From: Spirochaetia bacterium
GTDB taxonomy: Bacteria > Spirochaetota > Spirochaetia > SZUA-6 > Bin103
Reading direction: 5' to 3'
Assembly (NCBI GenBank): GCA_965203055.1
Contig: OZ241863.1
Span: 4,352,001-4,416,000 of the forward strand
DNA length: 64,000 bases
Each line of letters starts with the position of its first letter. Within the stretch, counting starts at the first letter, position 1. Under the pieces are notes generated by a model. That model was given only the letters and a program-made list of their open reading frames with translations. It had not been told where the DNA came from and searched no databases. Below are positions 3,980 through 40,613 of this stretch, in pieces. A program made the translations under genes and the position numbers.

Positions 3980-4027
3980 CGCGGCAGCGCGGCGGGACCG
4001 CGGCCCGATAGCGCGGCCGGCCGCTCC

Positions 4028-4078
4028 GGGAGGACCGGGAGGATGGGCGGCGCCTTACCTGGCGCCGTCGGTCCTCCC
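4028..4078 (+). promoter_or_regulatory. Intercistronic stem-loop after the SBP gene
   Basis: GGGAGGACCG (4028-4037) pairs with CGGTCCTCCC (4069-4078); inner GCGGCGCC/GGCGCCGT stem with TTACCT loop. Confidence 0.5.
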
Positions 4079-4086
4079 TCCGGTAC

Positions 4087-8643: not shown

Positions 8644-8648
8644 CGGAA

Positions 8649-11895: not shown

Positions 11896-11923
11896 CGGCA
11901 TGAAACGGACGGAGGGGGAGCCG

Positions 11924-12875: not shown

Positions 12876-14318
12876 ATGGCGACGGAAATCGTAATGCCGC
12901 GGCAGGGGCAGTCGGTGGAGGCGTGCACCATCGTGCGCTGGCTCAAGCAGCCCGGCGAGAACGTCGGAACCGGCGACGTGCTGTGCGAGATAGAGACCGA
13001 CAAGGCCGCCTTCGAGGTGGAGTCCACTGCCGCCGGCACCCTGCTGGCCCAGTTCGTCCCGGAGGGGGAGGAGGTGCCGGTGCTTACCCCCATCGCTGTC
13101 GTGGGCGAGCCCGGTGAGGACGTGCCCGCGCCGGCCGCGGCCGGCGCGGGCGGCGGCGCCTTGCCGCCCGCAGGCGCGGGCCGGCCGCCGGCAGCGCATC
13201 CCGCGGCGGCGCCGGAGCCGGTGGCCGCCGCGCTTCCCGGCCAGGCGGCCGCCGTTCCCGCGCCCGCCGCCGCCGATTCGGCGCCGGCGCGCCGCGGCGG
13301 CCCGGCCAGCTCGCCGCGCGCCCGCCGGCGGGCCGGGGAGCTGGGCGTTGACTACACCGCCCTGAGCGGCAGCGGGCCGGGCGGGCGCATCATCGAGCGC
13401 GACGTGGTCGCCGCGGCCGCGGCGCGCCCGGCGCTCACCGCGGCCGCCCGCGCGGCTGCGGCCGGCGGCAGCCCGGTTCCCGCGGCCGGTAGCGGCATCG
13501 GCGGTCGCGTTACCCTGGCGGACATGGAAGCGGCGGCTGCCCCGCAGGCGGAAGCCGCGGCGGCGGCCGCGGCCCCGGCCGCCGCCGCGCAGCAGGTGAC
13601 GACCGTCCCGGTCACCGGCGTGCGCAAGCTGATCAGCGAGCGCATGCGGCAATCGCTGCTCGACAGCGCCCAGCTCACCATGCACGCCAGCGCGGATGCG
13701 GAAGCGCTGGTGGCGTACCGCGCCCGCCTCAAGAACAGCGCGGAACACCTCCAGCTCCGGCACGTGACGATCAACGACCTCATCCTGTTCGCCGCGGCGC
13801 GCACCCTGCCGCAGTTTCCGGAGCTCAACGCGGTGGTGCGCAGCGACGGCGCCGGCGATCACGTAGAGCGGCATCGCGCCGTGCGCCTGGCGTTCGCGGT
13901 CGATACCGAGCGCGGCCTGATGGTGCCGGTCATCGCCGCGGCCGAGCGCCTCTCCATTGCCGCGCTTGCCGGCCGCGCCCACGAGCTGGCGGCGGCGGCC
14001 CAGGCCGGCTCCATCAGTCCCGACCTGCTGCAGGGCGGCACCTTTACCGTGACCAACCTCGGAGCCCTCGGCGTGGAGAGCTTCACGCCGATCCTCAATC
14101 TGCCGCAGGTGGCGATTCTGGGGGTGGGAGCGCTGGTGCTGAAGCCGGCGGCGGCCGATCTGGCTCAGCCCGGCGCGCTGCGGCAGGTCAGCTACCGGCG
14201 TCACCTCGGCCTGTCGCTGACCATCGATCACCGGATGGTGGACGGCGCCCCGGCGGCCCGCTTCCTGCAGGCATTGGCGGCAGCCATCGCCGACCTCGAC
14301 CTGCTCGCGGCGCGGTAG
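12876..14318 (+). CDS. 2-oxoacid dehydrogenase E2 (dihydrolipoamide acyltransferase)
   Basis: Lipoyl motif IETDKA, E3-binding ASSPRARR...GSGPGGRI, catalytic DHRMVDGA. Confidence 0.95.
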   Translation: MATEIVMPRQGQSVEACTIVRWLKQPGENVGTGDVLCEIETDKAAFEVESTAAGTLLAQFVPEGEEVPVLTPIAVVGEPGEDVPAPAAAGAGGGALPPAGAGRPPAAHPAAAPEPVAAALPGQAAAVPAPAAADSAPARRGGPASSPRARRRAGELGVDYTALSGSGPGGRIIERDVVAAAAARPALTAAARAAAAGGSPVPAAGSGIGGRVTLADMEAAAAPQAEAAAAAAAPAAAAQQVTTVPVTGVRKLISERMRQSLLDSAQLTMHASADAEALVAYRARLKNSAEHLQLRHVTINDLILFAAARTLPQFPELNAVVRSDGAGDHVERHRAVRLAFAVDTERGLMVPVIAAAERLSIAALAGRAHELAAAAQAGSISPDLLQGGTFTVTNLGALGVESFTPILNLPQVAILGVGALVLKPAAADLAQPGALRQVSYRRHLGLSLTIDHRMVDGAPAARFLQALAAAIADLDLLAAR

Positions 14319-14372
14319 TGGCGCAACCACGGATGCGGCGCGCGCGGCGGTGCGGATGACGGAACGGCGGCG

Positions 14373-15749
14373 ATGAGTGACTTCGACGTGGCGGTGGTGG
14401 GCGGCGGCCCCGGCGGCTACGTGGCCGCGGAACGGGCCGCGGCGCGCGGCCTGCGCACGGCGCTGGTGGAACGCGAACATCTCGGCGGGGTGTGTCTCAA
14501 CTCCGGCTGCATCCCCACCAAGACCCTGATCCACTCGGCCAAGCTGTTGCAGCAGGCGCGCCACGGCGCCGCCTACGGCGTTACGGTGGAGGGCGCCCGC
14601 TACGACCTGAGCGCCGCCATGGCGTGGAAGGAGGCGGTCACCGCGCGCCTGCGTTCCGGGGTGGCGGCGCAGATGGAGCGCCGCGGGGTCACCGTGGAAG
14701 CCGGCAGCGCGCGCCTGACCGGCCGCGGCCGGTTGACGGTGGACGGCCGCGAGCTGGGCGCCCGCCACGTCATCATCGCGACCGGATCGCGCAGCGCCCG
14801 CCCTCCCATCCCCGGCGCCGGCCTTCCGCACGTGGTGGACAGCGCCGGCGCGCTGCAGTTGGAGCACCTGCCGGCGCGCGTGGTGATCGTCGGCGGCGGC
14901 TACATCGGGATGGAGTTTGCCAGCTATTTCCACGCGGTCGGCGCCGAGGTGGTGGTGGTGGAGCTGCTGGAGGAGATTCTGGCGGGCGTGGACGGCGACT
15001 TGGTGCGCCAACTCAAGAGCGCGCTGCCGGGGGTCGCCTGGCATCCGGGGTCGCGGGTGACCGCGATCAACGCCTCCGGGGTGACGGTCGAGACGCCGGC
15101 CGGTGAGCGGGAGGAGGCCGCCGACCTAGTGCTGCTGGCCACCGGCCGCGTCCCCAACACGGCCGGGTTGGGGCTGGAGGCGGTTGGCGCGCTGTTCAAC
15201 CGCCGCGGCATCACGGTGGACCAGTTCATGCGCACCAACGTGGCCGGCCTCTACGCCGTCGGCGACGTGACCGGCCGCTCGCTGCTCGCGCACGCCGCCT
15301 CGCGCATGGGCGAGGTCGCGGCGGACGTCATTGCCGGGGGGCGTCCGGGCAGCAACCGGATGCGCTATCACGCCGTGCCGTGGGTGGTGTACACCTTGCC
15401 CGAGATCGCCGGCGTCGGCCTGTCGGAACAGGCCGCGCGCGCCGCCGGCCGCCGCGTCAAGGCGGCCCGCCTGCCGCTGGCCGCCAACGGCCGCTTCCTG
15501 GCCGAGCACCTGGCGCCGGCCGGCCGCGGGCAGCCGACTCCACGCGGCCTGGTCAAGGTGATCGTGGACGCCGACAGCCACGTGCTGCTCGGCGCGCACA
15601 TGATCGGCACCCCTGCTTCCGAGATCATCTTCGGCGCCGCCGCCATGATCGAGGCCGAGTTGCGGGTAGAGGAGCTGCGCGAAATCGTGTTCCCCCACCC
15701 CACCGTATCGGAGGCCCTGCGCGACGTACTCTGGGAGGTGGATCTGTAG
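14373..15749 (+). CDS. lpdA: Dihydrolipoyl dehydrogenase (E3)
   Basis: [29 protein letters not shown]. Confidence 0.95.
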
Positions 15750-15751
15750 CG

Positions 15752-18217
15752 ATGCCGAAGTCGATGGTGGTGGCGCCGGAGCAGGTGCGGGGGGCGGGGT
15801 GGCTGGAAACCGCGCCGATTCCGCTGAATCAGTACCGCCCGGACGCGGCGGCGGAGCGGGAACGCTGGGGGGCCGAAGCGTTGCGCGAGGTCTACGCCGA
15901 CATGGTGACGATCCGCGCCTTCGAGAGCATGCTCGGCGACATCAAGACGCAGGGCTCGTTCCGCGGCATCGAATATGAGCATCCGGGCGCCGCCCACCTG
16001 TCGATCGGCCAGGAAGCGGCGGTGGTGGGCCTGTGTCTGCCGCTGGCGCCGGAGGATCTGATCTTCGGGTCGCACCGCAGCCACGGCGAGATCCTCGCCA
16101 AGTGCGCGCGCGCGATCCGTTCGCTGCCGGAAGCCGAGCTGCAGCGCACCATGGAAGCCTATCTCGAAGGCGCCGTGCTGCGCGTCATCGAACCCGCGGC
16201 GCAGTGGGATTCGGTGCGGGAACTGGCGCGTCACTTCATCCTCTACGGCGTGCTGGCGGAAATCTTCGCGCGCACCACCGGCCTGAACCGCGGGCTCGGC
16301 GGCTCCATGCACGCCTTCTTCGCGCCGTTCGGAAGCATGCCCAACAACGCCATCGTCGGCGGCTCGGCCCCCATCGCCGCCGGCGCGGCGCTGTTCAAGC
16401 GCTGCAACCGCCGGCCCGGAATCGTGGTCGCCAATATCGGCGACGCCGCGGCCGGCTGCGGGCCGACCTGGGAAGCGATCACCTTCGCCGCCATGGAGCA
16501 GTATCGGACGTTGTGGGATCCGGAGCTGGGCGGTGCCCCGCCGATGTTGTTCAACTTCCTCAACAACTTCTACGGCATGGGCGGCCAGACCGCGGGCGAG
16601 ACCATGGGTTTCGAGGTGCTGGCGCGGGTCGGCGCCGGGGTCAACGCCGAGGGGCTGCACGCCGAACGGGTGGACGGCTACAACCCGCTGGCGGTAGCCG
16701 CCGCGGTAGCCGCCAAACGCCAACTCCTGCAGGCGGGGCGCGGCCCGGCGCTGCTCGACACGGTCACCTACCGGCTGGCCGGGCACTCGCCCTCCGACGC
16801 CGCTTCCTACCGGACCCGCGAGGAGCTGGCGCGCTGGCAGGAGGCGGACTGCGTGGCCGGCTACGGCCGCTATCTGGAGCGGCACGGCCTGGCCGCCGCG
16901 GCCGAGCTGGAGCAGGAGCAGGCGCGCGCCGCCGCCAGTATGGAACTGGTATGCCGGCTGGCGGTGTCGCCGGACCATTCGCCGCGGCCGGACCGCGAGG
17001 CGCGGCTGATCGCCGGGGTGATGTTCTCCAACCGGTCGCGCGCCGCGCTTGCCGAGGGGGAGCCGGAGCTGGCCGGCTCCCTGGCCGACAACCCGCGCGC
17101 CGCGGCGATTGCCCGGCGCTCGCGCAGCGCCCTTGGCCCGGACGGCAAGCCGCTGCCGCGGTCGCGGGTGGTGTCGTTGCGCGACGCCCTGTTCGAGGCG
17201 CTGGCCTACCGCTTTACCGTCGACCCCACGCTGGTCGCCTACGGTGAGGAGAACCGGGACTGGGGCGGGGCGTTCGCGGTGTACCGCGGCCTCACCGAGT
17301 TGCTGCCCTATCACCGCCTGTTCAACTCCCCCATCTCGGAGGCGGCGATCGTCGGCAGCGCGGTCGGCTACGCCATGAGCGGCGGGCGCGTGGTGGTGGA
17401 GCTGATGTACTGCGACTTCATCGGCCGCGCCGGCGACGAGATCCTCAATCAGATGGCCAAGTGGCAGGCCATGTCCGCCGGCGTGCTGCAACTGCCGCTG
17501 GTGCTGCGGGTGTCGGTCGGCAACCGCTACGGCGCGCAGCACTCCCAGGACTGGTCCTCGCTGTTGAGCCACGTCCCCGGCCTGAAGGTGTATTTCCCGG
17601 CCACCCCCTATGACGCCAAGGGGATGCTCAACCGCGCCCTGCAGGGCACTGACCCGGTGATCTTCTTCGAGAGCCAGCGGTTGTACGACTACGGCGAGGA
17701 CTTCGTGGCCGGCGGGGTGCCGGTGGAGTACTACGAAGTGGAGGAAGGCCTCCCGGCGTTGCGCCGCGCCGGTGACGATCTCACCATCGTGACCATCGGG
17801 GCGGCGCTGTACCGCGCCCTGGAAGCGGCCGACGAGCTGCGGTCCGCCCACGGAATCGACGCCGAGGTTTTCGACGCGCGCTTTCTCAACCCGTTGGATC
17901 TGCGGCCGATCGCCGATTCGGTGCGCAAGACCGGGCGCGTGGTGCTGGCCTCCGACGCCTGCGAGCGCGGCAGCTTTCTGCACACCGTCGCCTCCAACCT
18001 GACCCGGCTCTGCTTCGAACACCTGGACGCCCCGCCGGTGGTGGTGGGGGCGCGCAACTGGATCACGCCCGGCGCCGAGCTGGAGCAGGCGTTCTTTCCC
18101 CAGAAGGACTGGATCCTGGACGCCATCCACGAGGAACTGCTGCCGCTGGCCGGACACGCCAGCCGCACCGACCCGACTCGCGGCGAACTCACCGCCCGCG
18201 CGCGCGCCGGGATCTAG
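15752..18217 (+). CDS. Fused E1 alpha/beta subunit of a 2-oxoacid (or acetoin-like) dehydrogenase
   Basis: [23 protein letters not shown] motif GDAA...NNFYG, YRLAGHS; beta part [18 protein letters not shown]. Confidence 0.9.
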
Positions 18218-18221
18218 TTCA

Positions 18222-19190
18222 GTGAGCGCGGGCCGAACCGCGGCGGGCGCGTTTCAGGTAATGCGGACGCAGGCGTTCGAGCGCATCGCTCGGCTGGTGG
18301 GCGATACGCCGCTGGTGGAGGTCTCCCAGTCGGTGGCGTCGGCCCGGATCCTGGCCAAGCTGGAGTACTACAATCCCAGCGGCTCGGTGAAGGACCGCGC
18401 CGCCAAGGCGATGCTGGAGGCCGCGCTGGCGGCGGGCGCGCTCGCCGGCCGTACCATCCTCGAAGCCACCAGCGGCAACACCGGCATTGCGCTGGCCATG
18501 TTCGGCAGCGCCCTGGGGCTGCCGGTGGAGTTGGTGATGCCGGCCAACGTCACCCCCGAGCGCAAGCGGATCATCGCCAACTACGGCGCGCGCTCCATCT
18601 TCACCTCCAACCTGGAGGGCACCGACGGCGCGCAGCGCCGGGCGGCCGCGCTGGCCGGCGCCCATCCCGAGCGCTACTTCTATCCCGATCAATACAACAA
18701 CGAGCACAACTGGCGCGCCCACTACCGCGCCACCGGGCCGGAGATCTGGCGCCAGTCGCACGGCGCCGTTACCCACTTCGTCGCCGGCCTGGGCACCAGC
18801 GGCAGCTTCGTCGGCACCGCCCGCTACCTGCGCGAACGCGGGGTGCGCTGCGTTGCCGTGCAACCTGACAATCCGATTCACGGGCTGGAAGGCTGGAAGC
18901 ACATGCCGACGGCGCGGGTGCCGGGAATCTACGACCCCGCCGCAGCCGACGAGGTGCTCGAAGCGGATACCGAGATGGCGTACCGCTATGCCATCGCCGC
19001 GGGCCGCTATCTCGGCTACGCGCTGAGTCCCAGCGCGGCCGCCAACCTGTGGGGGGCGCTGGAGGTCGCCCGCAGCGCGTCCGGCGCGGTGGTGGTCACC
19101 CTGTTTCCCGATAATTCGCTGAAGTACCTCGACGACCCGTACTGGGGGAACGATGACTACGTTACCGAAGACCCTTTTCACCGAAATTGA
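18222..19190 (+). CDS. cysM: PLP-dependent cysteine synthase family protein (CysM-like)
   Basis: VGDTPLV, KLEYYNPSGSVKDR, EATSGNTG, GLGTSGS; alternative start ATG 18261. Confidence 0.85.
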   Translation: MSAGRTAAGAFQVMRTQAFERIARLVGDTPLVEVSQSVASARILAKLEYYNPSGSVKDRAAKAMLEAALAAGALAGRTILEATSGNTGIALAMFGSALGLPVELVMPANVTPERKRIIANYGARSIFTSNLEGTDGAQRRAAALAGAHPERYFYPDQYNNEHNWRAHYRATGPEIWRQSHGAVTHFVAGLGTSGSFVGTARYLRERGVRCVAVQPDNPIHGLEGWKHMPTARVPGIYDPAAADEVLEADTEMAYRYAIAAGRYLGYALSPSAAANLWGALEVARSASGAVVVTLFPDNSLKYLDDPYWGNDDYVTEDPFHRN

Positions 19191-20185: not shown

Positions 20186-21775
20186 CTACATCCCCCACAC
20201 GGTGATCGGTGTGCCGGCGCTCGTCTCGGCGCGGCGGAACAGCTTGTCCTCCCAGGTCCGCTCCGGCCGGCGGTCGAACACTACCAGGTGCCCCTCCGCC
20301 GCGGAGCAGCGCTGCAGATAGGCGCGGGTCTGCGCCAGCCCTTCGCGGATGGTTTCCTCCAGCCCCCGCTGCGGGCGCACCACCTTGCATTCGATCACGG
20401 TCTTGCGCGCCGCGCCCGGCGGCGGCGCCGCCGGCCACACGAGCAGCAGGTCGGTGCGCATCCGCCCCAACCCGTACTCGCGATGGATCAGGCCGCCGCT
20501 GTTGACGATGCGCTGCAGGAACGCCTGCAACAACAACTGCGGCCCCGCTTCCTGGTACTGAAACCGCCGCACCCAGTGTTCCGAGTGCTCCCGGAAGAAC
20601 TCCTGAAACGCCCTCAGCAGCTTGGCCACGTTCAATCCTCCGCCGGCGTCCAGGTACCACACCGGCTGGTCGGTAATGCTCGCCTGCACGTGGCTGGTCA
20701 GTTCGCGCGGCACCACTTCCGCGTAGATCGGATTGGCCATGCGCAGCGGATCGTCGCGCGCGATCAGGCCCAGGTCGCGGACGTATTCGATGTCCGCCGC
20801 GGAGTACCGGCTTGCGCCGCCGCCGCTGAGCAGCGGCTCGATCACGTGGTGGACGCGCGCCTCCCGGAGCTTGTCGGCAAGTTGGTCGAGATGCGTGTCG
20901 CGGCGCAGGATCAGTTGCTCGCTCGCGCCGCGGATCGCGGCCGCGGTGACCGGGCGCCTGCGGTCGCGCCCGGTCTCGTCCTCGAAGCACGCCTGTTGGG
21001 CGAGCGCGTTCACCAGCCAGGGCTGGCCCTGCGTGAGTTCCCACACCTCATCGACCGCGTCCCCGGCCCACCGCTGGCCGGTCTCGGCGGTGTGCTGGCG
21101 CAGCAGCGCGCGCACCTCCGCCGGCGAGAAATCGTCCATGCGCAGCGACTTTACCTTGACGTTGAAGGCGCTGCCGCCGGTAACGATCTCGTTGCGGCTG
21201 GCCGAGCGGATGCGGTAGTCGCGCACGTCGCGCACGCCGCACAGGATGACGCTCTGCGGGAAGCGGCGCGGGCGGCGGGCATAGCCGGTGCGCAGTTGCC
21301 GCAACACCGCGATCAGGGTGTCGCCGATCAGCGCGTCGATCTCGTCGATCAGCAGCACCAGCGGCTTGCGGTCGGCCGCCGCCCAGCGGGCGAGCACTTC
21401 GCGCAGGCAGTTGTGCGGTCCGGCCCGGGCCAGCGCCTCCGGCCAGGTTGCCGCCGGAAACGAGTCCTCCAGCGTGGCGTACGCTTCATCGGCGAGCTCG
21501 TTGAGGATCGCGCGCATCGCCTCGGCCACGTCCTCACCCGCGGATTGGCCGCTTTCGACGTTCACGTAGACGCAGCGGCAGGCGCCGCCGGCGTTCAGCT
21601 CGTCCACCAGCGCCAGCAGGGCCGAGGTCTTGCCGGTCTGGCGCGGGGCGTGCAGCACGAAGTACTTCCAGTCGTCGATCAGGGACAGCAACTCGCCGCG
21701 GTCGAGCCGTTCCAGCGGCGGGACGTGGTAGTGCTTCTCCGGGATCATAGGTCCGGCGGTGTTGAAGAAGCGCAT
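20186..21775 (-). CDS. AAA-like ATPase with C-terminal PD-(D/E)XK nuclease-like domain
   Basis: MRFFNTAGP start, Walker A APRQTGKTS, Walker B LLIDEID, C-terminal REYGLGRMRTDLLL...VIECKV. Confidence 0.85.
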   Translation of the reverse strand: MRFFNTAGPMIPEKHYHVPPLERLDRGELLSLIDDWKYFVLHAPRQTGKTSALLALVDELNAGGACRCVYVNVESGQSAGEDVAEAMRAILNELADEAYATLEDSFPAATWPEALARAGPHNCLREVLARWAAADRKPLVLLIDEIDALIGDTLIAVLRQLRTGYARRPRRFPQSVILCGVRDVRDYRIRSASRNEIVTGGSAFNVKVKSLRMDDFSPAEVRALLRQHTAETGQRWAGDAVDEVWELTQGQPWLVNALAQQACFEDETGRDRRRPVTAAAIRGASEQLILRRDTHLDQLADKLREARVHHVIEPLLSGGGASRYSAADIEYVRDLGLIARDDPLRMANPIYAEVVPRELTSHVQASITDQPVWYLDAGGGLNVAKLLRAFQEFFREHSEHWVRRFQYQEAGPQLLLQAFLQRIVNSGGLIHREYGLGRMRTDLLLVWPAAPPPGAARKTVIECKVVRPQRGLEETIREGLAQTRAYLQRCSAAEGHLVVFDRRPERTWEDKLFRRAETSAGTPITVWGM

Positions 21776-21855: not shown

Positions 21856-23259
21856 TCAGGCGGCCTGTGGCTGGGCCTCCTGCGGCACCGAGGCGGACAG
21901 CAGGCTCGCGTAGTCCCTTTTGAACCGCCCGCTCTTCACCGAGGTGCAGAGCTGCAGCATCCCCTGCGCCCCTCCCAACGACCAGATCATCCCGCTCCCC
22001 TTCAGCCGCGCCCCCACCATGTTCTTGCACGTACTCTCCACCGCCCCACTGCCGATCGGCAGCCCCTCCCGCCGGTACCGCCGGTAGTCCATCCGTCCCT
22101 GGTTGCTCTTCAAGTAGTTGATCTCCCCCTGCACCTCGTGCCGCTGCCGGGCACTCAACCCCCCGCCGTCGCGCAACTCCTCCAGCTCCTCTATCACTTC
22201 CCCCGCCCGACTGCCGCGCAGCATCGTCCGCCACCTCCGAAAGCATTCCTCTGCCTGCTTGCTCCTCTCCCCGTAGACGCTCCGACTCGCCTCCGCGAGA
22301 TGCTCGCAGGCGTGCCAGAAATCCAGGATGTACCACACCCGCAGCCCCCCTGCCGCCCAGGTCTCCGCCCGATCCCAAATCCATCCCGCCCCGTCGGCCA
22401 GCACTACCAGTTGCCGCGCCGCCCCCTCGCCGCAGCGCCGTTTCAGCTCCACTTCGATGCGCGGGAAGAACTGGTCGGCATGCTCGCTCGCCGCCACGTA
22501 GCTCGGCTTGCTGCTGCACTGCGCCTCCTGCTCCTCAGCGTCCCACTCCACCGCCGCCACCACCGCCACCTTGGCGTCCCGGTACTCCCGCTCGTAGCGC
22601 TTCTTCCCGGCATCATCTACCCGCTCCTTGCCGCGCACCGGCACCTTCCCCGCGTCGATGCATACCGCCACCGTCCCGCCAATCGGCTCGTGCAGCTCCG
22701 GCCCCGCCGCAGTCTGCTGGTAGTTGTCCACCTCCTGCTGGCGCTGCCGTTCCAACCCCTCCGTTACCTCCTGCACCATCGTGAACGCCTTCTTCTCCGA
22801 CACCAGCTCCCCGCCGTCGGCGCGGAACACCTCGTGAAACTGCCGCAGACTCTCTGCGTGCGCCTGGCGCGCTACGAACTGACTCAGAAAGTACTGGCAG
22901 CCCGGCGTATGGCCGCGCTTGATGCCGAGCCGCTCATCCAACGGCGCCCAGCCCTGGCCGCTACCGCTGGCGTAGTAGGCCCGTTCGTAGGGTACCGTCC
23001 CGAACAGTCCGTGCAGGGTCTTGGAGCGGTGGCCGACAAACCGATACGACACCCCGTTGCGCTGGACCGTGGCGCCGCGGTAATCGCGGCCCAGTTCCTT
23101 GAACCACTCCCCCATGGCAGCGCGGCACAGGCGCACCAAGCACTTGAGGAGACTCAGTTCTGCCCGCAACAGGTCGTGGGGACCGCTAGCGCGGCCCAGT
23201 TCGAGACCACAGGTGGCCTTGCAGTAGTTGAGAATCTCGGTTACCAATGAATCACACAT
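21856..23259 (-). CDS. DDE transposase (ISKra4/ISLre2-type, UPF0236-like)
   Basis: CIDAG, LADGAGWIW, LDFWHACEHL, RMDY..YR..GLPIGSGAVES, RLKGSGMIW. Confidence 0.92.
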   Translation of the reverse strand: MCDSLVTEILNYCKATCGLELGRASGPHDLLRAELSLLKCLVRLCRAAMGEWFKELGRDYRGATVQRNGVSYRFVGHRSKTLHGLFGTVPYERAYYASGSGQGWAPLDERLGIKRGHTPGCQYFLSQFVARQAHAESLRQFHEVFRADGGELVSEKKAFTMVQEVTEGLERQRQQEVDNYQQTAAGPELHEPIGGTVAVCIDAGKVPVRGKERVDDAGKKRYEREYRDAKVAVVAAVEWDAEEQEAQCSSKPSYVAASEHADQFFPRIEVELKRRCGEGAARQLVVLADGAGWIWDRAETWAAGGLRVWYILDFWHACEHLAEASRSVYGERSKQAEECFRRWRTMLRGSRAGEVIEELEELRDGGGLSARQRHEVQGEINYLKSNQGRMDYRRYRREGLPIGSGAVESTCKNMVGARLKGSGMIWSLGGAQGMLQLCTSVKSGRFKRDYASLLSASVPQEAQPQAA

Positions 23260-31967: not shown

Positions 31968-34900
31968 ATGCCTGTTGCCGATCCGAACACGCGCGCGCAT
32001 TTGGAATGGCTGGGCTTCATCCAGCCGCACGGTCTGGTGGTGTCGCCGCCGGCGCTGCTCAAGGCGGGCGCGTTCGTCAACCGGCAGGATACCCACCGGC
32101 AGGCGCTGCTCGCCGGCTGCGCCGACGAACGCGAGCTCGCTCCGGGCGGCAACCCACAGCAGTGCATCCGCGACTTCCGCGAGTTCGCCGCCGCGGTGCT
32201 CGGCTGGGGCTTCTCGCCCCGGGGCTACGCCGGCTTCACTGAAGCAGCTCCGATCCCTGAAGAACTCACGCTGCCGCTGCCCGATTACGGCGAGACCCTG
32301 CGCCCCGACTTCGCGGTGCGCGAGCGCGACCCGGCGAACGGCGACTCCCCGTGGCAACTGCTGGTGCAGGTGCTGGCCGCCGGCCAGGAGTTCGACCGTC
32401 CGGCGCCGGGCGCCGGCGGGCTGGACGCATCCGCCCAGGGGCGCGCGGAACGCCTGCTGCGCGCCACCGGGGTGCCCGCCGGCGTGCTGGTCAACGGCGT
32501 TGCGCTGCGCCTGATCTCCGCCCCGCGCGGCGAGAGTTCCGGCTGGATGGATTTCCGCTTCGCCGACCTGCTCACCACCGCCGGACGCCCGCTCTGCTCC
32601 GCCCTGCACCTGCTCCTGGGCGAGCAGCGCCTGCTGGCGCTGCCGCGCCATGAACGCCTCACCGCCGTGCTGGCCGACAGCCGCCTGTACCAGAACGAGG
32701 TGTCCGAGCGCTTGGCCGAGCAGGTGCTGCATGCGTTGTACGAACTGGTGCGCGGCTTCCAGAACGCCCATGCCGCCACCGACGGCGCGCTGCTGAGCGA
32801 GCCGCTGGCCGCCGGCCGCGACCGCAACGCCATCTACCGCGGGTTGCTCACCGTGATCCTGCGGCTGGTGTTCCTGCTGTACGCCGAGGAGCGCGGCCTG
32901 CTGCCAAAGGACGAGACCTTCGCGCGCCACTACTTGCTGGGCGGCCTCTACCGGCGGCTGCGCAAGGACGCTGCGGCCTACCCGGACACGATGGACCAGC
33001 GCTACGGCGCCTGGGCGCAGTTGGTGGTGCTGTTTCGCCTGCTCCACGACGGAATACCGGCGGGCGGCGGCGGCGCGGTAAGTCTGCCGGAGCGCCGCGG
33101 CGCGCTGTTCGATCCCGACCGTTACCGGTTCCTGGAGGGCCGTAGCGGCAGCGGGTCGCGGCAGCGGAACGCGCGGCTGGAGCCGCCGCGGGTGTCGGAC
33201 GGAGTGGTCTACCGGGTCCTGGAAAAGCTGCTGGTGCTGGACGGGGAGCGGCTCTCCTACCGGACGCTGGACGTGGAGCAGATTGGCTCGGTGTACGAGA
33301 CGATCATGGGGTTTCGGCTGGAGACTGCGACCGGGCGCTCGCTGGCGGTCAAGCCGGCCAAGAAGCTGGGGGCGCCCACCACCATCGACCTGGACGCGCT
33401 GCTGGCGCAGCCCCCCGCGCGCCGCGGGCGCTGGCTGCAGGAGCGGGCGGACCGCCCCGTCAGCGCCGCGGTCGCTCGTGGGTTGCGCGCCGCGCGGACG
33501 GTGAACGACCTGCACGCGGCGCTGGACCGGGTGCTGGATCACGCCGCGACGCCGGACTTGGTGCCGCGCGGCGGGCTGGTGCTGCAGCCCAACGAGGAGC
33601 GGCGCCGTTCCGGCTCGCACTACACGCCGCGCGAGCTGACCGAGCCGATCGTGCGCCACACGCTGGCGCCGCTGCTGGAGCGGCTGCGCGGCGAGGACGG
33701 CGGCGCGCCGCGCCCGGAGCAGGTCCTCGAACTCAAGATCTGCGATCCGGCGATGGGCTCGGGGGCGTTTCTGGTGGAGACCTGCCGCCAGTTGGCCGAC
33801 GCGCTGATCGAGGCGAGGGGCGCGCACGGCGCGCTGCCTGACATCCCGGCGGATGAAGACGAGGTGACCTTCGCGCGGCGGCTGGTGGCGCAGAAGTGTC
33901 TCTACGGCATCGACCGCAACCCGATGGCGGTGGACTTGGCCAAGGTGTCGCTGTGGCTGAGCACGCTGGCGCGCGACCATCCGTTCACCTTCGTGGACCA
34001 CGCCTTCCGCCGCGGCGATTCGCTCATCGGGCTGACGCGGCGGCAGATCGAAGCGCTGCACTGGCAGGGCGGGCAGCCGATCCTGGCCGGCTTCGGGGTG
34101 CGCGAGAAGTTGGAGGAAGCCGCGGCGTTGCGGCGCCGGATTCGGGAAGCGGACGACACCGTGACCGACCGCGAGCTGCAGCGTCTGTGGCGCCGCGCGC
34201 AGGACGCGCTGGCCGAGGTGCGGCGGTTCGGCGATCTGACGCTGGCGGCGTTCTTCGAGGGCTCGAAGTCGAAGGAGCGCGCGGCGCGTCTGGAGGCGTA
34301 CCAGGAAGCGATTTTGACGCGGCAGGCGCGGCGCTACGCCGCGGAGTTGAAGGCGCGCCGTAACACTCAAGAAAAGCCGTTCGCGCCGTTCCACTGGGAG
34401 ATCGAGTTTCCCGAAGTGTTCGAGCGGGAGAACCCCGGCTTCGACGGCTTCGTCGGCAACCCGCCGTTCGCGGGCAAGAACAACGTTGCCGCCGGCAACG
34501 TCGCCGGCTATCCGAGCTGGCTCAAGGAACTGCACGCGCGGAGCCACGGCAATGCCGACCTGGTGGCGCACTTCTACCGGCGCGCGTTCGACCTGCTGCG
34601 CGGCGGCGGCGCGTTCGGCCTGATCGCCACCAACACCATCGCCCAGGGCGACACCCGTTCCAGCGGCCTGCGCTGGATCTGCGAACGCGGCGGGGAAATC
34701 TACCGCGCCGTCAAGCGCGTCAAGTGGCCGGGCGATGCCGCGGTGGTGGTCAGCGTGGTGCACCTCGCCAAGGGCGAGTTTGCCGGCAAGAGGATGCTCG
34801 ACGGTGCCCCGGTGGAGCGCGTCACGGCGTTTCTGTTTCATCGGGGCGGGCATGCCGATCCGGTGCGGCTGGCGGCCAACGCCGGCAAGAGCTTTCAGGG

Positions 34901-35885
34901 CAGCATCGTGCTCGGCATGGGATTCACCTTCGATGACACCGACCGGAAGGGAGTCGCATCACCGCTCGCCGAGATGCGGCGGCTGATCGCTCAGGACCCG
35001 CGCAACCGCGAAGTGATCTTCCCCTACGTCGGCGGCGAGGAGGTGAACACCAGTCCCACTCATACGCACCATCGCTACGTCATCAACTTCGGCGAGCGAA
35101 GCGAGGCCGAGTGCCGTCGGGGCTGGCCGGACTTGATGGCGCTCGTCGAGGAGCGGGTCAAGCCGGAGCGACTGCGGCAGAACGACAGAGGTGCACAAGA
35201 GAAATGGTGGCAATTCATCAGACCGCGTCCCGAGCTTCACGCCGCCATCTTCCGACTGGATAGGGTATTGGTAGTCTCCCGTGTCGGCCAACAAGCGGCA
35301 TTTACCTTCCTCCCAAGAGACATGGTGTACGCGGAATCCATGATCATCTTTCCGTTGACTTCGTACGCGGCATTCTGCTCCCTCCAGTCCCGTCCCCACG
35401 AAATCTGGGCACGCTTCTTCGGATCGTCAATGAAGGACGATCTCCGCTACACCCCTTCCGATTGCTTCGAGACCTTCCCGTTCCCGGAAGGCTGGGAAAC
35501 TCATCCCGACCTCGAAGCCGCCGGCAAGGCGTACTACGAATACCGCGCCGCGCTCATGGTTGACAACAACGAGGGCATGACCAAGACCTACAACCGCTTC
35601 CATGACCTCTACGAGACCGACCCGCGCGTCGCCGAGTTGCGCGAGCTGCATGCCGCCATGGATCGCGCCGTGCTCGACGCCTACGGCTGGAGCGACATTC
35701 CCACCGCCTGCGGCCTCCTCCTCGACTACGAGATCGACGAGGCCTCCTGGGGCCGCAAGAAGAAGCCCTACCGCTGGCGTTGGCCCGACGAAGTCCGCGA
35801 CGAAGTGCTCGCCCGCCTGCTCGCCCTCAACGCCGACCGCGCCGCCGCCGAAGCCCGCGCAGGCATCGCCGCAGGCCACGGATAA
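31968..35885 (+). CDS. Large N6-adenine DNA methyltransferase with C-terminal TRD (Type IIG/Eco57I-MmeI-like; resembles DISARM DrmMI)
   Basis: GSHYTPRELT, motif I DPAMGSGAFL, motif IV GNPPF, C-terminal RYTPSDCFETFPFP and TKTYNRFHD...LRELH..MDRAV. Confidence 0.88.
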   Translation: MPVADPNTRAHLEWLGFIQPHGLVVSPPALLKAGAFVNRQDTHRQALLAGCADERELAPGGNPQQCIRDFREFAAAVLGWGFSPRGYAGFTEAAPIPEELTLPLPDYGETLRPDFAVRERDPANGDSPWQLLVQVLAAGQEFDRPAPGAGGLDASAQGRAERLLRATGVPAGVLVNGVALRLISAPRGESSGWMDFRFADLLTTAGRPLCSALHLLLGEQRLLALPRHERLTAVLADSRLYQNEVSERLAEQVLHALYELVRGFQNAHAATDGALLSEPLAAGRDRNAIYRGLLTVILRLVFLLYAEERGLLPKDETFARHYLLGGLYRRLRKDAAAYPDTMDQRYGAWAQLVVLFRLLHDGIPAGGGGAVSLPERRGALFDPDRYRFLEGRSGSGSRQRNARLEPPRVSDGVVYRVLEKLLVLDGERLSYRTLDVEQIGSVYETIMGFRLETATGRSLAVKPAKKLGAPTTIDLDALLAQPPARRGRWLQERADRPVSAAVARGLRAARTVNDLHAALDRVLDHAATPDLVPRGGLVLQPNEERRRSGSHYTPRELTEPIVRHTLAPLLERLRGEDGGAPRPEQVLELKICDPAMGSGAFLVETCRQLADALIEARGAHGALPDIPADEDEVTFARRLVAQKCLYGIDRNPMAVDLAKVSLWLSTLARDHPFTFVDHAFRRGDSLIGLTRRQIEALHWQGGQPILAGFGVREKLEEAAALRRRIREADDTVTDRELQRLWRRAQDALAEVRRFGDLTLAAFFEGSKSKERAARLEAYQEAILTRQARRYAAELKARRNTQEKPFAPFHWEIEFPEVFERENPGFDGFVGNPPFAGKNNVAAGNVAGYPSWLKELHARSHGNADLVAHFYRRAFDLLRGGGAFGLIATNTIAQGDTRSSGLRWICERGGEIYRAVKRVKWPGDAAVVVSVVHLAKGEFAGKRMLDGAPVERVTAFLFHRGGHADPVRLAANAGKSFQGSIVLGMGFTFDDTDRKGVASPLAEMRRLIAQDPRNREVIFPYVGGEEVNTSPTHTHHRYVINFGERSEAECRRGWPDLMALVEERVKPERLRQNDRGAQEKWWQFIRPRPELHAAIFRLDRVLVVSRVGQQAAFTFLPRDMVYAESMIIFPLTSYAAFCSLQSRPHEIWARFFGSSMKDDLRYTPSDCFETFPFPEGWETHPDLEAAGKAYYEYRAALMVDNNEGMTKTYNRFHDLYETDPRVAELRELHAAMDRAVLDAYGWSDIPTACGLLLDYEIDEASWGRKKKPYRWRWPDEVRDEVLARLLALNADRAAAEARAGIAAGHG

Positions 35886-35899
35886 GAAGCCCGACTATC

Positions 35900-37357
35900 C
35901 TACCGAATAGGCCGCACGCCGCCGCGTCGGCCGAGCCCATATCCTACCCGAAAGACGTCAGGAATGTTCACGCGGCCGTCACGCAACCGCAGAAAGACGC
36001 CGAGCGACTCCAGGTCCGTGCGCACGCCGTCGGATCGCTGCCCGATGTGACGCGGTGGCAGCTTCACTGCGTCCTGATCGGCTTCCTCGCGCAAGCGATC
36101 GAGAACACCCTCGCTGCGCCAGCGCTCGGCGATGTGGTCGAAGGGGCAAGGTACGACCATGCCGGCAAGCGGAGTCAGCACCCGGTCTATCCACGGATAG
36201 TCCTCCCGCATCTCGCTGACACGTATCCTCGACGCTTCCTGGACACCGCGCTTGATGCTTTCGTAATGCAGAGCGTACCGGTGCTCAGGATGCTCGTACC
36301 GGGTGTCCTCCACCGCCTTTCGCAGCGCGGCGAGAAACGAACGCGGGCTCACTCTGCCCTCCGTATCGGCAAGGTGGTTCGGGATCCACGTGTACGGAAA
36401 CCCTCGTTTGGGACCGCGACCCATCCACTCGCCGGCGATGGCATGAAACTTGCCGCGTTGTTGGTCGTCCTCCTTGAGGATGGCCCGCGGGGCGGAGAAT
36501 ACCGATTCATCGCCCGCTCTGAGCTCCGACCAGTCGTGGGAGGTGAGAAAGCCCCGAAAGCGCTTCCCATGCCGTCCGTTGGCGAGAAAGTGCCACAACA
36601 GACCGTACAGCTCGCGGCGCGGCCAACTTAGCTCGATGGCCGAGGAAAGGACCTTCGAGGCATCGGGGAAGTCGGCGATCTGGCTCTCGTCGACCTGGTC
36701 CGACCGCAGGAAGACCTTGACGCGCAGACGGCGGTACGCACGCATGTCGAGGGCGGTCTGCAGCAGACCGCGGATCGCCGGATACATCTCCTTCCAGTCA
36801 TCGGCGCAGCGATCCAGGGCGTCGAAGAGTATCACCAGATGGGCGCCCCTTCGATCGAGTTCCACATCTCGTTCGTGAAACAGTCGGTCGATAACCTCCG
36901 GATTGCGATCGACGAACGCTACACGATCCGGCCACGAACGCCGCTTCCGCAGCTCATCCGCAACGCCGGCGAGCTGCCACGCCTGCACGGTTCGCCAGAT
37001 CGACCTGGGTTCGGCGCCATCCAACATCAAAGTCCTCAACACGTCCTTGCTCGGGTATGCGTCGGGCTCCGGCCGGACGCCGAAACCGGTTCGCACCTCC
37101 GTGCTCTCGCCCATCGGGGATGGGACCGACTGCTGGCCGACCAAGTCGCGTACCGCCTCGTTCTGGAGCGCGCCCCACCAGAACGTCTTTCCCGCGCCGC
37201 GCATGCCGGTCACCAACAGGATGTCCGGATGCAACGCCTTGAGGTGAGAGCGCGGCAGGTAGACCTGCGTGGGCTCCGGTCGGTCGCCGTGGCTGGTGCC
37301 GTCCGGCAGCTCGTCCAGCGCTTCGCGTGCCGTTTCGACGTCGATCGTCTGGCTCAC
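35900..37357 (-). CDS. P-loop NTPase of unknown function (third gene of triad)
   Basis: Walker A TGMRGAGKT, Walker B LVILFDALD, KVFLRSD strand, SPRSF; GTGA overlap with upstream gene. Confidence 0.8.
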   Translation of the reverse strand: MSQTIDVETAREALDELPDGTSHGDRPEPTQVYLPRSHLKALHPDILLVTGMRGAGKTFWWGALQNEAVRDLVGQQSVPSPMGESTEVRTGFGVRPEPDAYPSKDVLRTLMLDGAEPRSIWRTVQAWQLAGVADELRKRRSWPDRVAFVDRNPEVIDRLFHERDVELDRRGAHLVILFDALDRCADDWKEMYPAIRGLLQTALDMRAYRRLRVKVFLRSDQVDESQIADFPDASKVLSSAIELSWPRRELYGLLWHFLANGRHGKRFRGFLTSHDWSELRAGDESVFSAPRAILKEDDQQRGKFHAIAGEWMGRGPKRGFPYTWIPNHLADTEGRVSPRSFLAALRKAVEDTRYEHPEHRYALHYESIKRGVQEASRIRVSEMREDYPWIDRVLTPLAGMVVPCPFDHIAERWRSEGVLDRLREEADQDAVKLPPRHIGQRSDGVRTDLESLGVFLRLRDGRVNIPDVFRVGYGLGRRGGVRPIR

Positions 37358-38655
37358 GGCGTTCCCTCGTTCCTGCTACTGGCGAGGAGCTCGTCGAACC
37401 GAGGCCGGAATTGCTCGTAGGCATTCCGTACTGCTATCTGTTCCCGCTCCAGGTCGCGTAGCGACGCACCGGCCGCAAGTCCTCTGTTCCAGTGGATGGC
37501 GATCGGGTCGTGCGGCGCGCCTTCTTCGTGGAGATCGAACGAGAACCGGTCATGGGAGTCGCCGGACGGCTCGATGTTGTCATACAGGTGTTCCCGAAAC
37601 AGGTTCCACGCCTGCTCCCGAAACCGCCGGAGGTACCGATCGGGGTCGGTCTCCGGCGTCAGGGCGGAGACGATCGACAGCCGTTCCCTGATGCTCGGAG
37701 CCAGGCCATGCGTCTGCCAGTGGCGGAACAGCACGGCGTAGTCGGTCCAGTGGCTCTCCGCGTCGACCGCGAACAGCAGGACCTGAGCACCGAGGTCGGT
37801 CACCGTAGCAGCGGCGATGTCGTGCAGGCCGCTGCGGCTTTCCAGCAGCACGATCGACGGCTTGTACGTCTCTTCCAACCGCGACAACAGTCGTTCCAGG
37901 CGAGCCGTCCAGGGAACCTTGATGTCCAGGTAGACACGGCCCAACTTCGCCAGATACTCGCCGGGTTCGCTGCCGTGAGCGGGAACCACGTGCACGTCGC
38001 CGTCGAGATCCTGCGCCCAGGCGGGAGCTGCGGCCATTCTCTCGGATACGTAGTCATCCTGTCCGACCAAGTCCTCCACGAACCAATCGGTGACGCCGAA
38101 CTCCGGGCGCGCCGCCGGATCGAGCATGGCGGACGACAACCCCGGCGATTCCAGGTCCAGATCGACCACCAGCACGCGTTCGCCGTTGCGCGCCAGATGC
38201 CATGCCAGAACCGCCGCCGTGGTGCTGCGCCCGACGCCGCCCTTGACTGAGTAGAGCGTGTACCGCGTCGCGCTCGTTGTTCGGGGAGGGGCTTTCACCG
38301 TCCACCAATCGCCGCCCGTCACCAGCCGATCGGCCAAATACACGCCGGGGTGAATCATCAGCGCTTGGTCGTCGAGATCGTCCAGCAGCGCGGCGTCCAT
38401 GAACAGCACGGCGTCCTCCGCGGGGAATCCGTGCGGGCCGAGCGTCTCGTGCAGCCTCCGGGCGAGAGGTTCGAGCACGGCGCGGACCGTCTTGCTTGTC
38501 TCCATCTCGTCCGAAACCGAAATGCGAACCCTCCCCAGGAGGTCGCGCACCAGATAGATGCGTCCGGCCTCGGACAACGCCTCGGAAGACATAGTTTCGA
38601 GTACGCCTGCTACGCGGTCCGTTAAGGCGTCAAACGCTACGAACGGATCCGTCAT
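37354..38655 (-). CDS. ParA/MinD-like ATPase with KGGVGR variant Walker A and N-terminal extension (433 aa)
   Basis: YSVKGGVGRSTT, VLVVDLDLESPGL, LLESRSGLHD; ATG 38655 overlaps the upstream stop (ATGA). Confidence 0.85.
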   Translation of the reverse strand: MTDPFVAFDALTDRVAGVLETMSSEALSEAGRIYLVRDLLGRVRISVSDEMETSKTVRAVLEPLARRLHETLGPHGFPAEDAVLFMDAALLDDLDDQALMIHPGVYLADRLVTGGDWWTVKAPPRTTSATRYTLYSVKGGVGRSTTAAVLAWHLARNGERVLVVDLDLESPGLSSAMLDPAARPEFGVTDWFVEDLVGQDDYVSERMAAAPAWAQDLDGDVHVVPAHGSEPGEYLAKLGRVYLDIKVPWTARLERLLSRLEETYKPSIVLLESRSGLHDIAAATVTDLGAQVLLFAVDAESHWTDYAVLFRHWQTHGLAPSIRERLSIVSALTPETDPDRYLRRFREQAWNLFREHLYDNIEPSGDSHDRFSFDLHEEGAPHDPIAIHWNRGLAAGASLRDLEREQIAVRNAYEQFRPRFDELLASSRNEGTP

Positions 38656-39080
38656 ACTTCTACGCCGTCCCGCAGCGCGCGCTGGACCAATTTGCGTATT
38701 CCTTCGGCTGCCGAGCGAAGTGGACTTACGCTCGCGTAATCGAAGTGCCGCCGGTGCGCGTACCGATCCTCGATCGACCAGCTCGCGAACGGATCGCCGG
38801 CCGGCAGCAACGACAGGTACTTCGCCCCTTTGTGACCGTCGACGGATGTGGCGAACTCGCTCCATAGCTTCGTGACATGCACCTTGTGTTCCGGCCTCGT
38901 CGGTACCCCATGAGGCGTCACCGGCATCATCTCTAAACCGCGCATTACCGCCTTCAAGCCGCATTCGGCGCTGAGCCCGTACAACTGATCCGCATTCGCC
39001 CAGCAATCGTTCCGAAAGAGCAGCTCGGCGTCTCGCCAGTGGCGGAGATGCGCGTCGTGGAAGTCTGCCGGGTAATCCAT
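38652..39080 (-). CDS. Small HEPN-like protein (first gene of triad)
   Basis: RHWRDAELL...NADQLYGLSAECGLKA (HEPN ExxxK helix), central HKVH, C-terminal WSIEDRY. Confidence 0.7.
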   Translation of the reverse strand: MDYPADFHDAHLRHWRDAELLFRNDCWANADQLYGLSAECGLKAVMRGLEMMPVTPHGVPTRPEHKVHVTKLWSEFATSVDGHKGAKYLSLLPAGDPFASWSIEDRYAHRRHFDYASVSPLRSAAEGIRKLVQRALRDGVEV

Positions 39081-39157
39081 GGTTCAGCGCCGAGTATCGC
39101 CGATTGCCGCATACAATGCCAGCTTGCCGGGTGAGTGCTGCCGGCGGGGATGGAGGT

Positions 39158-40414
39158 TCAGCCTTCGCCCTGCGGCGGGGGCGGCAGGCCGCGCGTCAAG
39201 CGGCGCCCGAGCAGCCGCGCCACCAGCATGAGCAGCGTGATGCCGGCGAACGCCAGAGCATAGGACAGGAACACGTGGCGGGTGCTGGCGCGGATCGAGA
39301 TCCAGCTTGCCGCCAGCGGACCGAGGCCGAAGCCGAGGCCGCCCACCAGGTTCTGCAGGCCGAACAGCACCCCCCGCCGGGCGCGCGCGCTGTGCGCCGA
39401 AAGGTAGGACTGCACGAACGGCTGCACGCTGCCGAGCGCGAACCCGCTCATCACGTAGAACAACGCGAACAGCGCCAAGTCCGAAGCGAGGAACGTGGGC
39501 AGCGCCGCCAGCGCCCCGACCCCGGCGCTGGCGGCGATCAGCCACAGCTTGTCGAAGCGGTCTCCCAACCGCGCCAGGGTGACTCCCGCGGCGGCCGCCA
39601 CCGCCGCGGCCCCGGCCATGATCAAGCCGGTGACGGCGGCGTCTCCCGACGCCGCGGCGGCGGAGGTTCCGGCGCGCAGCTCGGCCACGTAGAGGGGCAC
39701 GAACGCCGTCGGCTGGGCGCGGGCGAAGCGCAACAGGAACATCACCGCGAACAGCAGCAGGAACGGCAGGCTCAGCAGCTCGCGCAGCGGCTGGCGGGCG
39801 GCGCGCGGCCGGGGCGCGGTGAGGCGCCGCCGCAACGCCGGCTCCCTGCCCGGCTCTTCGAGGAACAGCACCACCAGTACCAGTCCCGCGGCGACCACCC
39901 CGGCGCCGATGAAGAACGAGGAGCGGAACCCCAGCAGGTCGGCGGACACCCCGCCGATCAGCGGCCCGAGACTGGAGCCGATGAAGGTGGAGGAGCTCAT
40001 CAGCCCCAGCGCCCGGGTCAGGTGCACGCGCGGGGTGCCGGCCGCTATCAGCGTCGCCGAGGCGGTGACCGTGCCGGTGAACAGCCCTTGCAGCGCCCGC
40101 AGGACGAACACCGTCTGCACCGATTGGGCGAAGCCCAGGGCCACGGCCAGCAGCATGGCCGAGGCCAGGGCGCGGACGATCATCAGCTTGCGCCCGAAGC
40201 GGTCCGACACCAAGCCCCAGAACGGGGCCGCGAGGGCCATGGCCACGCCCGGCGCGGCCGCGGTGATCCCTACCCACAGCTTGAGCGAGCCGGGGTCGCT
40301 CACGCCCAGTTCGCGGATGAACAGCGGGATGAACGGCAGAATGAAGCCGAAGCCGGTGAGCGCCAGGATCTGCGCCAGCCAAGCCAGGTAGAGATTCTTG
40401 CGCCACTGCTCCAC
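39158..40414 (-). CDS. MFS transporter (MdtG/DHA1-like)
   Basis: WRKNL start, motif A WGLVSDRFGRKLM, LRALQGLF, GPLIGG. Confidence 0.9.
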   Translation of the reverse strand: MEQWRKNLYLAWLAQILALTGFGFILPFIPLFIRELGVSDPGSLKLWVGITAAAPGVAMALAAPFWGLVSDRFGRKLMIVRALASAMLLAVALGFAQSVQTVFVLRALQGLFTGTVTASATLIAAGTPRVHLTRALGLMSSSTFIGSSLGPLIGGVSADLLGFRSSFFIGAGVVAAGLVLVVLFLEEPGREPALRRRLTAPRPRAARQPLRELLSLPFLLLFAVMFLLRFARAQPTAFVPLYVAELRAGTSAAAASGDAAVTGLIMAGAAAVAAAAGVTLARLGDRFDKLWLIAASAGVGALAALPTFLASDLALFALFYVMSGFALGSVQPFVQSYLSAHSARARRGVLFGLQNLVGGLGFGLGPLAASWISIRASTRHVFLSYALAFAGITLLMLVARLLGRRLTRGLPPPPQGEG

Positions 40415-40613
40415 GGGCGTCCTCAGCGGGCGGCGGGGGCGGCCGCGACCGGCGGCACCGCGGCCGCTCCGTCAACCGCGCGCGGCGCGGCGGCGGGCGC
40501 TACGGCGGCGCGCCGCTCCCGCCGCCGCGGGCGGGCGCGCTTGCGGGGTGCGGCCCAAGAATGAGACACTATCCATTACCGGCGGATCATACGCCGCCGG
40601 CGCCTGAACGTCT

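Follow-up and report, generated by a model that had tools for sequence, protein, structure and literature searches.

Two in silico descriptions come closest to the locus reported here. The first is PDC-M28, one of 145 phage defence candidates of 'guilt-by-embedding' origin in PADLOC-DB v2.0.0 (Payne et al., bioRxiv 10.1101/2024.01.29.577857), a name that is absent from the main texts searched, including that of Payne et al. The second is the HINPO system (Li, Burroughs and Aravind, bioRxiv 10.64898/2026.10.19.760177, 22 Oct 2026), in which, according to the available portion of the preprint, an uncharacterised small HEPN protein (PA-HEPN1) is encoded upstream of a ConB2-clade ParA protein that has a PG motif and in which Arg substitutes for the Walker A Lys. 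The N-terminus of this ParA protein is described as a fused, fast-evolving and catalytically dead Pol-beta-type nucleotidyltransferase domain, and the downstream gene is described as encoding an ORC-CDC6/STAND AAA+ protein that is at times fused to ParA. In the same portion of the preprint PADLOC and DISARM are not mentioned, and BREX is mentioned just in a different section. We report the analysis of three adjacent genes, A, B and C (together the triad), in a 64,000-nucleotide stretch of DNA from a Spirochaetia bacterium (assembly GCA_965203055.1, contig OZ241863.1, positions 4,352,001 to 4,416,000 of the forward strand), the whole of which is referred to as the window. The results indicate that the triad is almost certainly a typical and intact representative of the PDC-M28/HINPO-type cassette of three genes. 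An earlier note on this DNA had proposed an undescribed system; that proposal is withdrawn, since all three proteins match PDC-M28A, PDC-M28B and PDC-M28C over their full length and the architecture fits that given in the HINPO preprint. The triad is therefore not a new kind of system: its kind entered the catalogue in 2023-24 and a description followed in 2026, each time in silico only. Its features are as follows.

38652..39080, minus strand: gene A, 142 amino acids (aa), ATG start; predicted stand-alone HEPN-fold protein; PDC-M28A, or PA-HEPN1 in HINPO terms.
37354..38655, minus strand: gene B, 433 aa from ATG; ParA-like nucleoside triphosphatase (NTPase) with a KGGVGRST P-loop, an N-terminal domain and a C-terminal extension; PDC-M28B.
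38281..38655, minus strand: N-terminal domain of gene B, aa 1 to ~125; named iNTase by the HINPO preprint.
35900..37357, minus strand: gene C, 485 aa, GTG start; predicted ORC/STAND-type AAA+ ATPase; PDC-M28C.

The three genes are joined by 4-nt start/stop overlaps. At the A/B junction (ATGA at 38655-38652) the ATG of gene B lies inside the end of gene A, which reads ...GTA TGA in minus-strand letters, and at the B/C junction (GTGA at 37357-37354) the GTG of gene C lies inside the end of gene B (...CCG TGA, likewise in minus-strand letters). The stop codon of gene C (35900-35902) is separated by 14 nt from that of a convergent 1305-aa methyltransferase (TAA, 35883-35885). The guanine-plus-cytosine (GC) fraction of the triad, calculated over 500-nt intervals, was 0.61-0.67 versus 0.69-0.75 across 39000-40499, the triad thus being less GC-extreme than the flanking MFS gene (39158-40414, minus strand). 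Coordinates, junction letters and composition agree with the arrangement set out in the earlier note, and the motifs that it listed were all located: AECGLKA and W-x4-RY in gene A, KGGVGRST in gene B, and GMRGAGKT and FDALD in gene C. A 550-aa open reading frame (ORF) with a TTG start and reaching 39006 was considered as the start of gene B and rejected as a frame artefact. A scan of 35700-39300 for promoters and terminators returned one promoter-like and one terminator-like site, both on the opposite strand and not exceeding those found in shuffled sequence.

The PADLOC search that had been suggested for the locus matched the triad to candidate PDC-M28, with A, B and C adjacent and on the same strand. 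Nearly the whole profile was covered by gene A (PDC-M28A, E 1.2e-45), gene B (PDC-M28B, PDLC04559, E 1.9e-137) and gene C (PDC-M28C, E 7.6e-176). In other genomes, copies of the cassette are found within DISARM and Hma operons, as guilt-by-embedding predicts, whereas no complete system surrounds the window copy, which is instead convergent with an orphan DrmMI-like methylase, with housekeeping genes around it. The elements of HINPO given in the available text of the preprint, comprising the upstream HEPN protein, the Arg-for-Lys ParA protein with PG, the extra N-terminal domain, the downstream ORC-CDC6/STAND protein and occasional ParA-ORC fusions, were all seen here.

Canonical ParA and MinD proteins have a deviant Walker A motif, KGGxxK[ST], containing the P-loop Lys, together with a Walker B Asp. 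Gene B departs from this set at both positions, with Arg for the P-loop Lys and Glu for the Walker B Asp. In an alignment of 32 gene B sequences the motif KGGxGR[ST]T was invariant, Arg replacing the P-loop Lys; S-P-G followed a DxDxE stretch, and 'ESRSG' occupied the position of the ParA/MinD Walker B hhhD, with Glu replacing Asp. The invariant residues were K138, G139, G140, G142, R143, T145, S170-P171-G172 and E272-S273-R274. Gene B scored 172.8 bits (cut-off 90) over aa 130-314 against NCBIfam NF047398, 'KGGVGR-motif variant AAA ATPase', and its likeness to ArsA, Soj, ParA, MinD and Mrp was confined to the surroundings of the P-loop. The NF047398 match and the alignment are in accord with the first reading of gene B as a MinD/ParA-fold ATPase with a long N-terminal extension and a Walker A motif, KGGVGRST, in which Arg stands for Lys. 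Invariance of R143 and S170-P171-G172 is likewise consistent with the ConB2 clade as delineated in the HINPO preprint, where the PG motif follows sensor 1; the placement of sensor 1 is an interpretation of that text. The N-terminal ~125 aa of gene B are fast-evolving, with a mean column identity of 44% versus 63% for the whole of gene B. This domain gave no Pfam match, and a profile built from 26 sequences gave four unrelated matches to PDB sequences at E<=10, none of them a nucleotidyltransferase.

Gene C carries Walker A and Walker B motifs. The predicted structure (predicted local distance difference test score, pLDDT, 88.6) gave 15 Foldseek matches at E<=1e-3, among them archaeal ORC2/Cdc6 (1.1e-5) and BrxC (1.5e-5), which indicates an ORC/Cdc6/BrxC/STAND-like AAA+ fold and agrees with the earlier identification of gene C as a second P-loop NTPase. 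A search of the PDB with the gene C sequence gave no match at E<=1. This structural likeness to BrxC of BREX and to ORC/Cdc6-like defence ATPases (9zll, 9zdx) is accompanied by differences: gene C has no sequence-level match to BrxC and has other partners, and neither PglZ nor PglX is encoded at the window locus. The gene C family is large (2388 matches at E<=1e-3) and unusually well conserved, with 64-70% identity across phyla. ParA Pfam domains were present in 62 of 65 long relatives of gene C (850-2425 aa, E<=1e-20), and one such protein (P0245, 915 aa), when checked residue by residue, comprised a complete gene B (59% identity) followed by gene C (60%). These natural fusions argue that B and C work as a single unit. 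C-like domains were also observed beside a reverse-transcriptase Pfam domain in one, and beside metallophosphoesterase and NACHT domains in the other, of two further proteins (P0307, 994 aa; P0308, 1328 aa).

Gene A itself gave no Pfam match, and a search of the PDB with its sequence gave a single chance match (E 0.06). Relatives of gene A fell narrowly below the HEPN_AbiV threshold (25.4 and 24.8 versus 27.1), and a paralogue belonging to a second subtype of the cassette in the same genome passed that of Pfam HEPN (27.3 bits, cut-off 22). The top-ranked Foldseek matches of the predicted structure (pLDDT 94.1) were HEPN proteins, the best at E 0.067 and none at E<=1e-3, and its structural neighbours include the HEPN-MNT structures 5yep, 7ae2 and 8xdj, with the caveat that helical bundles may attain such Z scores through arrangement alone. 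Since the HEPN ranking is uniform and the paralogue matches Pfam HEPN, the predicted HEPN fold of gene A is a sound assignment. Residues invariant in both subtypes were H14, D17, E39, C40, K43, H68, W101, R106 and Y107. The earlier note had recognised gene A as HEPN from an ExxxK helix; the fold stands and both E39 and K43 are invariant, but ExxxK is not known as a defining HEPN motif. In a set of 1.84 billion representatives, the gene A family accounts for 1016 clusters at 50% identity. Gene A differs from the toxins of HEPN-MNT toxin-antitoxin pairs in having no conserved Rx4-6H and in being partnered by a protein of the ParA fold. Because the nucleotidyltransferase-like domain of that partner is reported in the preprint to be inactive, AMPylation is an unlikely means of control.

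The conservation of the cassette was evaluated at 80 loci from other, species-representative genomes, a gene being scored as present when covered to at least 80%. A, B and C were found on one strand and in the same order at 57 of the 80 loci, the conserved three-gene order for which a neighbourhood survey had been advised. B and C only were present at 12 of the remaining loci and C only at eight, with one locus each for B only, A plus C, and none at that coverage; the misses include frameshifted or merged frames. The estimated A/B overlap was 4 nt at 41 of the 57 complete loci, and the B/C junction ranged from -13 to +2 at 58 of 69. Clustering of 1224 flanking ORFs revealed a DrmMI-like methylase as the top neighbour (11 of 80 loci), followed by DrmA (5), a HEC-01A/PDC-M07A-type ATPase (5), DrmD (4) and ThsB (3), with Hma, Dsr1, SoFic, IetS, AbiLi and HEC-03B at two loci each. 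A neighbour recognised by PADLOC was present at 30 or more of the 80 loci, a lower bound because the scan covered representatives of 81 of the 112 multi-locus clusters and none of the 676 singletons. Among the genomes of the order that were searched, 13 of the 23 in the host's family contain the gene C family, whereas the 37 belonging to other families all lack it; 14 model genomes searched as a control also yielded no copy of gene C. The cassette is patchily distributed and horizontally spread. In close relatives, in-frame deletions have fused A and B and left gene C intact (L008 8001-10001, L048 9462-10001, L065 8976-10001), and at another locus (L069 7374-8561) an insertion sequence (IS) with a DDE_3 transposase lies upstream of gene B in the place of gene A. 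These fusions and the IS suggest recurrent loss of the A-B part. No substitute effector was seen at loci without gene A, where the upstream genes encode a sulfatase, an AI-2E transporter, an IS transposase or DUF499.

A defence role, which is quite probable, is the best reading of the cassette because it occupies defence contexts elsewhere; the defence-rich surroundings of these other copies agree with the earlier designation of the triad as a candidate defence system. The explanation that we favour overall, and regard as somewhat probable, is a PDC-M28/HINPO-type antiviral candidate cassette with a proposed scheme in which C is the sensor, B the switch and A the effector. The steps are inferred, largely after the HINPO preprint (10.64898/2026.10.19.760177). 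Depending on ATP, the gene C protein would bind DNA that is foreign or being replicated, and it would assemble and act with the gene B protein as one unit. The gene B protein would serve as a nucleotide-dependent multimerising switch or scaffold, its odd P-loop probably making it slow or non-hydrolysing, and its N-terminal domain may sense a nucleotide. The gene A protein would be released or activated as the effector and the infected cell would be halted through dormancy or abortive infection, probably via cutting of RNA. The specific chain from C to B to A is doubtful at present. The scheme modifies the proposal in the earlier note of a HEPN effector controlled by a two-NTPase switch, of which the HEPN fold and the two P-loop NTPases were retained and an RNase activity of gene A is an assumption because a conserved Rx4-6H is absent.

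Several results weigh against this explanation. Its weak points are that gene A has no standard HEPN catalytic motif and is missing in a fifth of the loci. The gene A family keeps R106 and Y107 throughout, yet the downstream His varies and no conserved Rx4-6H was found; H109 and H112 are variable inside subtype 1, and subtype 2 has no His 4-6 residues beyond R106. Gene A may be dispensable, given the 12 of 80 loci with B-C in the absence of a full gene A and the eight of 80 with gene C alone. The Arg-for-Lys and Glu-for-Asp replacements may leave gene B without hydrolysis of nucleoside triphosphates, judging from its motifs, and the preprint is the sole source of the iNTase fold for its N-terminal domain. 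Among the scanned clusters no recognised defence neighbour was present at 50 of the 80 loci. No bench tests of the cassette were found in the literature searched; eight PADLOC candidates were tested in a study of cold seeps (10.1101/2024.09.26.614923), and in its available text PDC-M28 is not among the eight.

The adjoining methyltransferase bears on the principal alternatives. It and the features around it are as follows.

31968..35885, plus strand: DrmMI-like methyltransferase, 1305 aa; MmeI-family, type IIG-like N6-adenine DNA methyltransferase; convergent with the triad.
31968..39080, no strand: island of methylase plus triad, 7.1 kb, lower GC; missing at the corresponding site in two same-genus genomes.
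39158..40414, minus strand: MFS transporter; adjoins gene A across a gap of 77 nt.

The window methylase matched PADLOC DrmMI (PDLC02643, 1306.5 bits) and the Pfam domains Eco57I, MmeI_Mtase, MmeI_TRD and N6_Mtase. The island is flanked by alaS, rpmB and a MoCF-domain gene on one side and by the MFS gene on the other. In two genomes of the same genus (G008 and G001) the MoCF-domain gene is followed by the MFS gene at a distance of ~85-105 bp; therefore, the four genes at 31968-39080 constitute one 7.1-kb indel. The methylase and the cassette were thus gained or lost jointly in the host genome as one island, in which no recombinase or plasmid genes were seen. In a further genome of the genus (G005) the same MoCF/MFS junction holds a different insert of ~3 kb (L134, G005:C3:70000-87000, ~1447-4404), the two long ORFs of which had no PADLOC match. 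The junction may be an insertion hotspot because of this different insert.

The host genome (G000) encodes six DrmMI-like copies, at 0.980, 1.402, 1.766, 2.067, 2.595 and 4.384 Mb of its contig C1, the last being that of the window (31968-35885). Five are full-length (84-90% identical mutually) and one is of 1032 aa, all six being 84-95% identical; no defence gene was recognised next to two of the full-length ones, at 0.980 and 1.766 Mb. A second cassette, of the other subtype, was found at L007 (G000:C1:2052000-2071999; A' 9114-9539, B' to 10840, C' 10837-12417), with A, B and C ~22-27% identical to those of the window and with a convergent DrmMI-like gene (14958-19019, minus strand). On its flanks lie a Schlafen AlbA_2/HATPase_c_4 gene (7733-8917, minus strand) and an extra AAA_22/AAA_35 ATPase gene (12990-14672, minus strand). 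The methylases of the window and of the second cassette are 90% identical, the differences clustering at about residues 1070-1140 in the MmeI target-recognition domain, and DNA homology between the two loci ends at the ORF ends. The DrmMI-like family looks recently expanded or homogenised, with diversifying specificity.

On this background, one alternative holds that the methylase and triad form a four-gene, methylation-linked system in which host DNA is marked by the methylase, and C, on recognising incoming DNA that lacks methylation, triggers B and A; the triad would then act as effector arm for an orphan methylase of DISARM type. The reading is improbable. It accounts for an indel that contains precisely these four genes, for the convergent DrmMI-like paralogue beside a triad as diverged as the second, for retention of the second-cassette pairing in another genus (G011; nucleotide identity 89.6% for the triad and 89.2% for the methylase), for the top rank of DrmMI-like genes among neighbours elsewhere, and for the absence of DrmA, DrmB, DrmC and DrmD beside either cassette copy in the host genome. 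However, no such methylase was present within ~10 kb at 69 of the 80 loci elsewhere or at 17 of 18 loci in relatives. Furthermore, DrmA or DrmD is present at six of the 11 DrmMI-positive loci, where the triad is consequently merely embedded in DISARM; the copy number of DrmMI-like genes, two of them full-length and away from recognised defence genes, and the end of homology at the ORF ends also oppose it. The suggestion in the earlier note that the triad possibly guards the neighbouring methylase fails on the same counts of loci. Given the six copies, two of them without defence neighbours, and these negative loci, the methylase is not treated as a component; it is a frequent neighbour, co-inherited in the host genome, and not a proven part of the system.

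The window methylase was also considered as part of a local DISARM and rejected, as no DrmA, DrmB, DrmC or DrmD gene is nearby. The likeness to class 1 DISARM (DrmD, DrmMI, DrmA, DrmB, DrmC) consists in the match of the methylase to DrmMI and the embedding of the triad in DISARM at at least six of the 80 loci, whereas the window locus has the DrmMI-like gene only. The genome's complete class 1 DISARM is located at 2.586-2.622 Mb (DrmD, DrmA, DUF1998 and DrmC at 2.588-2.621 Mb), with one DrmMI-like copy inside. This system extends over ~35 kb with many nested genes (L154-L155, G000:C1:2586000-2625999), its contents being DrmD, two NsnB/HEC-03B-like ATPases, DrmMI, a ThsB-like TIR protein, a PDC-S20/QatA-like protein, a PDC-M38A fragment, AbiEi, DrmA, DUF1998 and DrmC.

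A second alternative, also unlikely, regards the cassette as cargo of mobile elements or as a selfish module of addiction or toxin-antitoxin-like type, maintained by post-segregational killing or competitor exclusion with no antiviral role. HEPN proteins are common toxins in HEPN-MNT pairs such as the structural neighbours of gene A, the cassette has spread horizontally across phyla at 60-70% identity, and it decays through deletion in close relatives, all of which this alternative would explain. It is opposed by an island that has no recombinase or plasmid genes, by three large components that include a DNA-sensor-type AAA+ protein and exceed the needs of a toxin-antitoxin pair, and by the repeated location of the cassette inside DISARM and Hma operons.

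A narrower proposal, confined to the host lineage and rather unlikely, is that HINPO cassettes and DrmMI-like paralogues work pairwise, the ORC-like sensor being tuned by the mark of the adjacent methylase. Each methylase paralogue would then have its own target-recognition region, and a methylase duplicated recently would have become coupled to each of two cassette subtypes that diverged long ago, a corollary that is equally unlikely.

A housekeeping role of ParA type in partition or in positioning of DNA or complexes, with the HEPN and AAA+ proteins as accessories, agrees with the membership of gene B in the ParA/MinD superfamily but is very improbable in view of the patchy occurrence in the host's family (13 of 23 genomes, against none of the 37 from the order's other families), the absence of the cassette from the same site in sister genomes, the replaced P-loop Lys, the lack of a ParB-type gene among the scanned neighbours and the lack of gene C in the model genomes. 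Pfam and PADLOC scans of the ORFs from 12.6 to 47.8 kb of the window found no ParB-type partner or replicon, no centromere search having been made, and agree with the earlier statement that none is nearby and that partitioning is unlikely.

Other observations concern the window and the host genome at large. Elsewhere in the window an AAA_22/AAA_35/AAA_16 ATPase gene lies beside a UPF0236 (transposase-like) gene (20186-21775 and 21856-23259, both minus strand); this ATPase gene is 74% identical at the nucleotide level to the extra ATPase gene of the second-cassette locus, and the two window genes may be a mobile pair. The genome gave 20 matches to the DrmD (SNF2 helicase) model and four to DUF1998, which indicates an unusually heavy defence load for 4.56 Mb. 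The window stretch occurs in public sequencing runs labelled sponge and marine metagenomes, and no RNA data set is among the runs listed.

As a discovery the triad adds little, because a 2023-24 catalogue and a 2026 description already cover this kind of cassette. The favoured antiviral cassette is nevertheless widespread and unites three switch or effector types, and the window provides an intact, compact copy in a complete 4.56-Mb genome. The host genome is suited to a first functional test because it combines this copy with a second subtype and a closely related methylase family. If the pairwise operation of cassettes and methylases in this lineage were true, it would represent a minimal, DISARM-independent, methylation-guided abortive-infection system.

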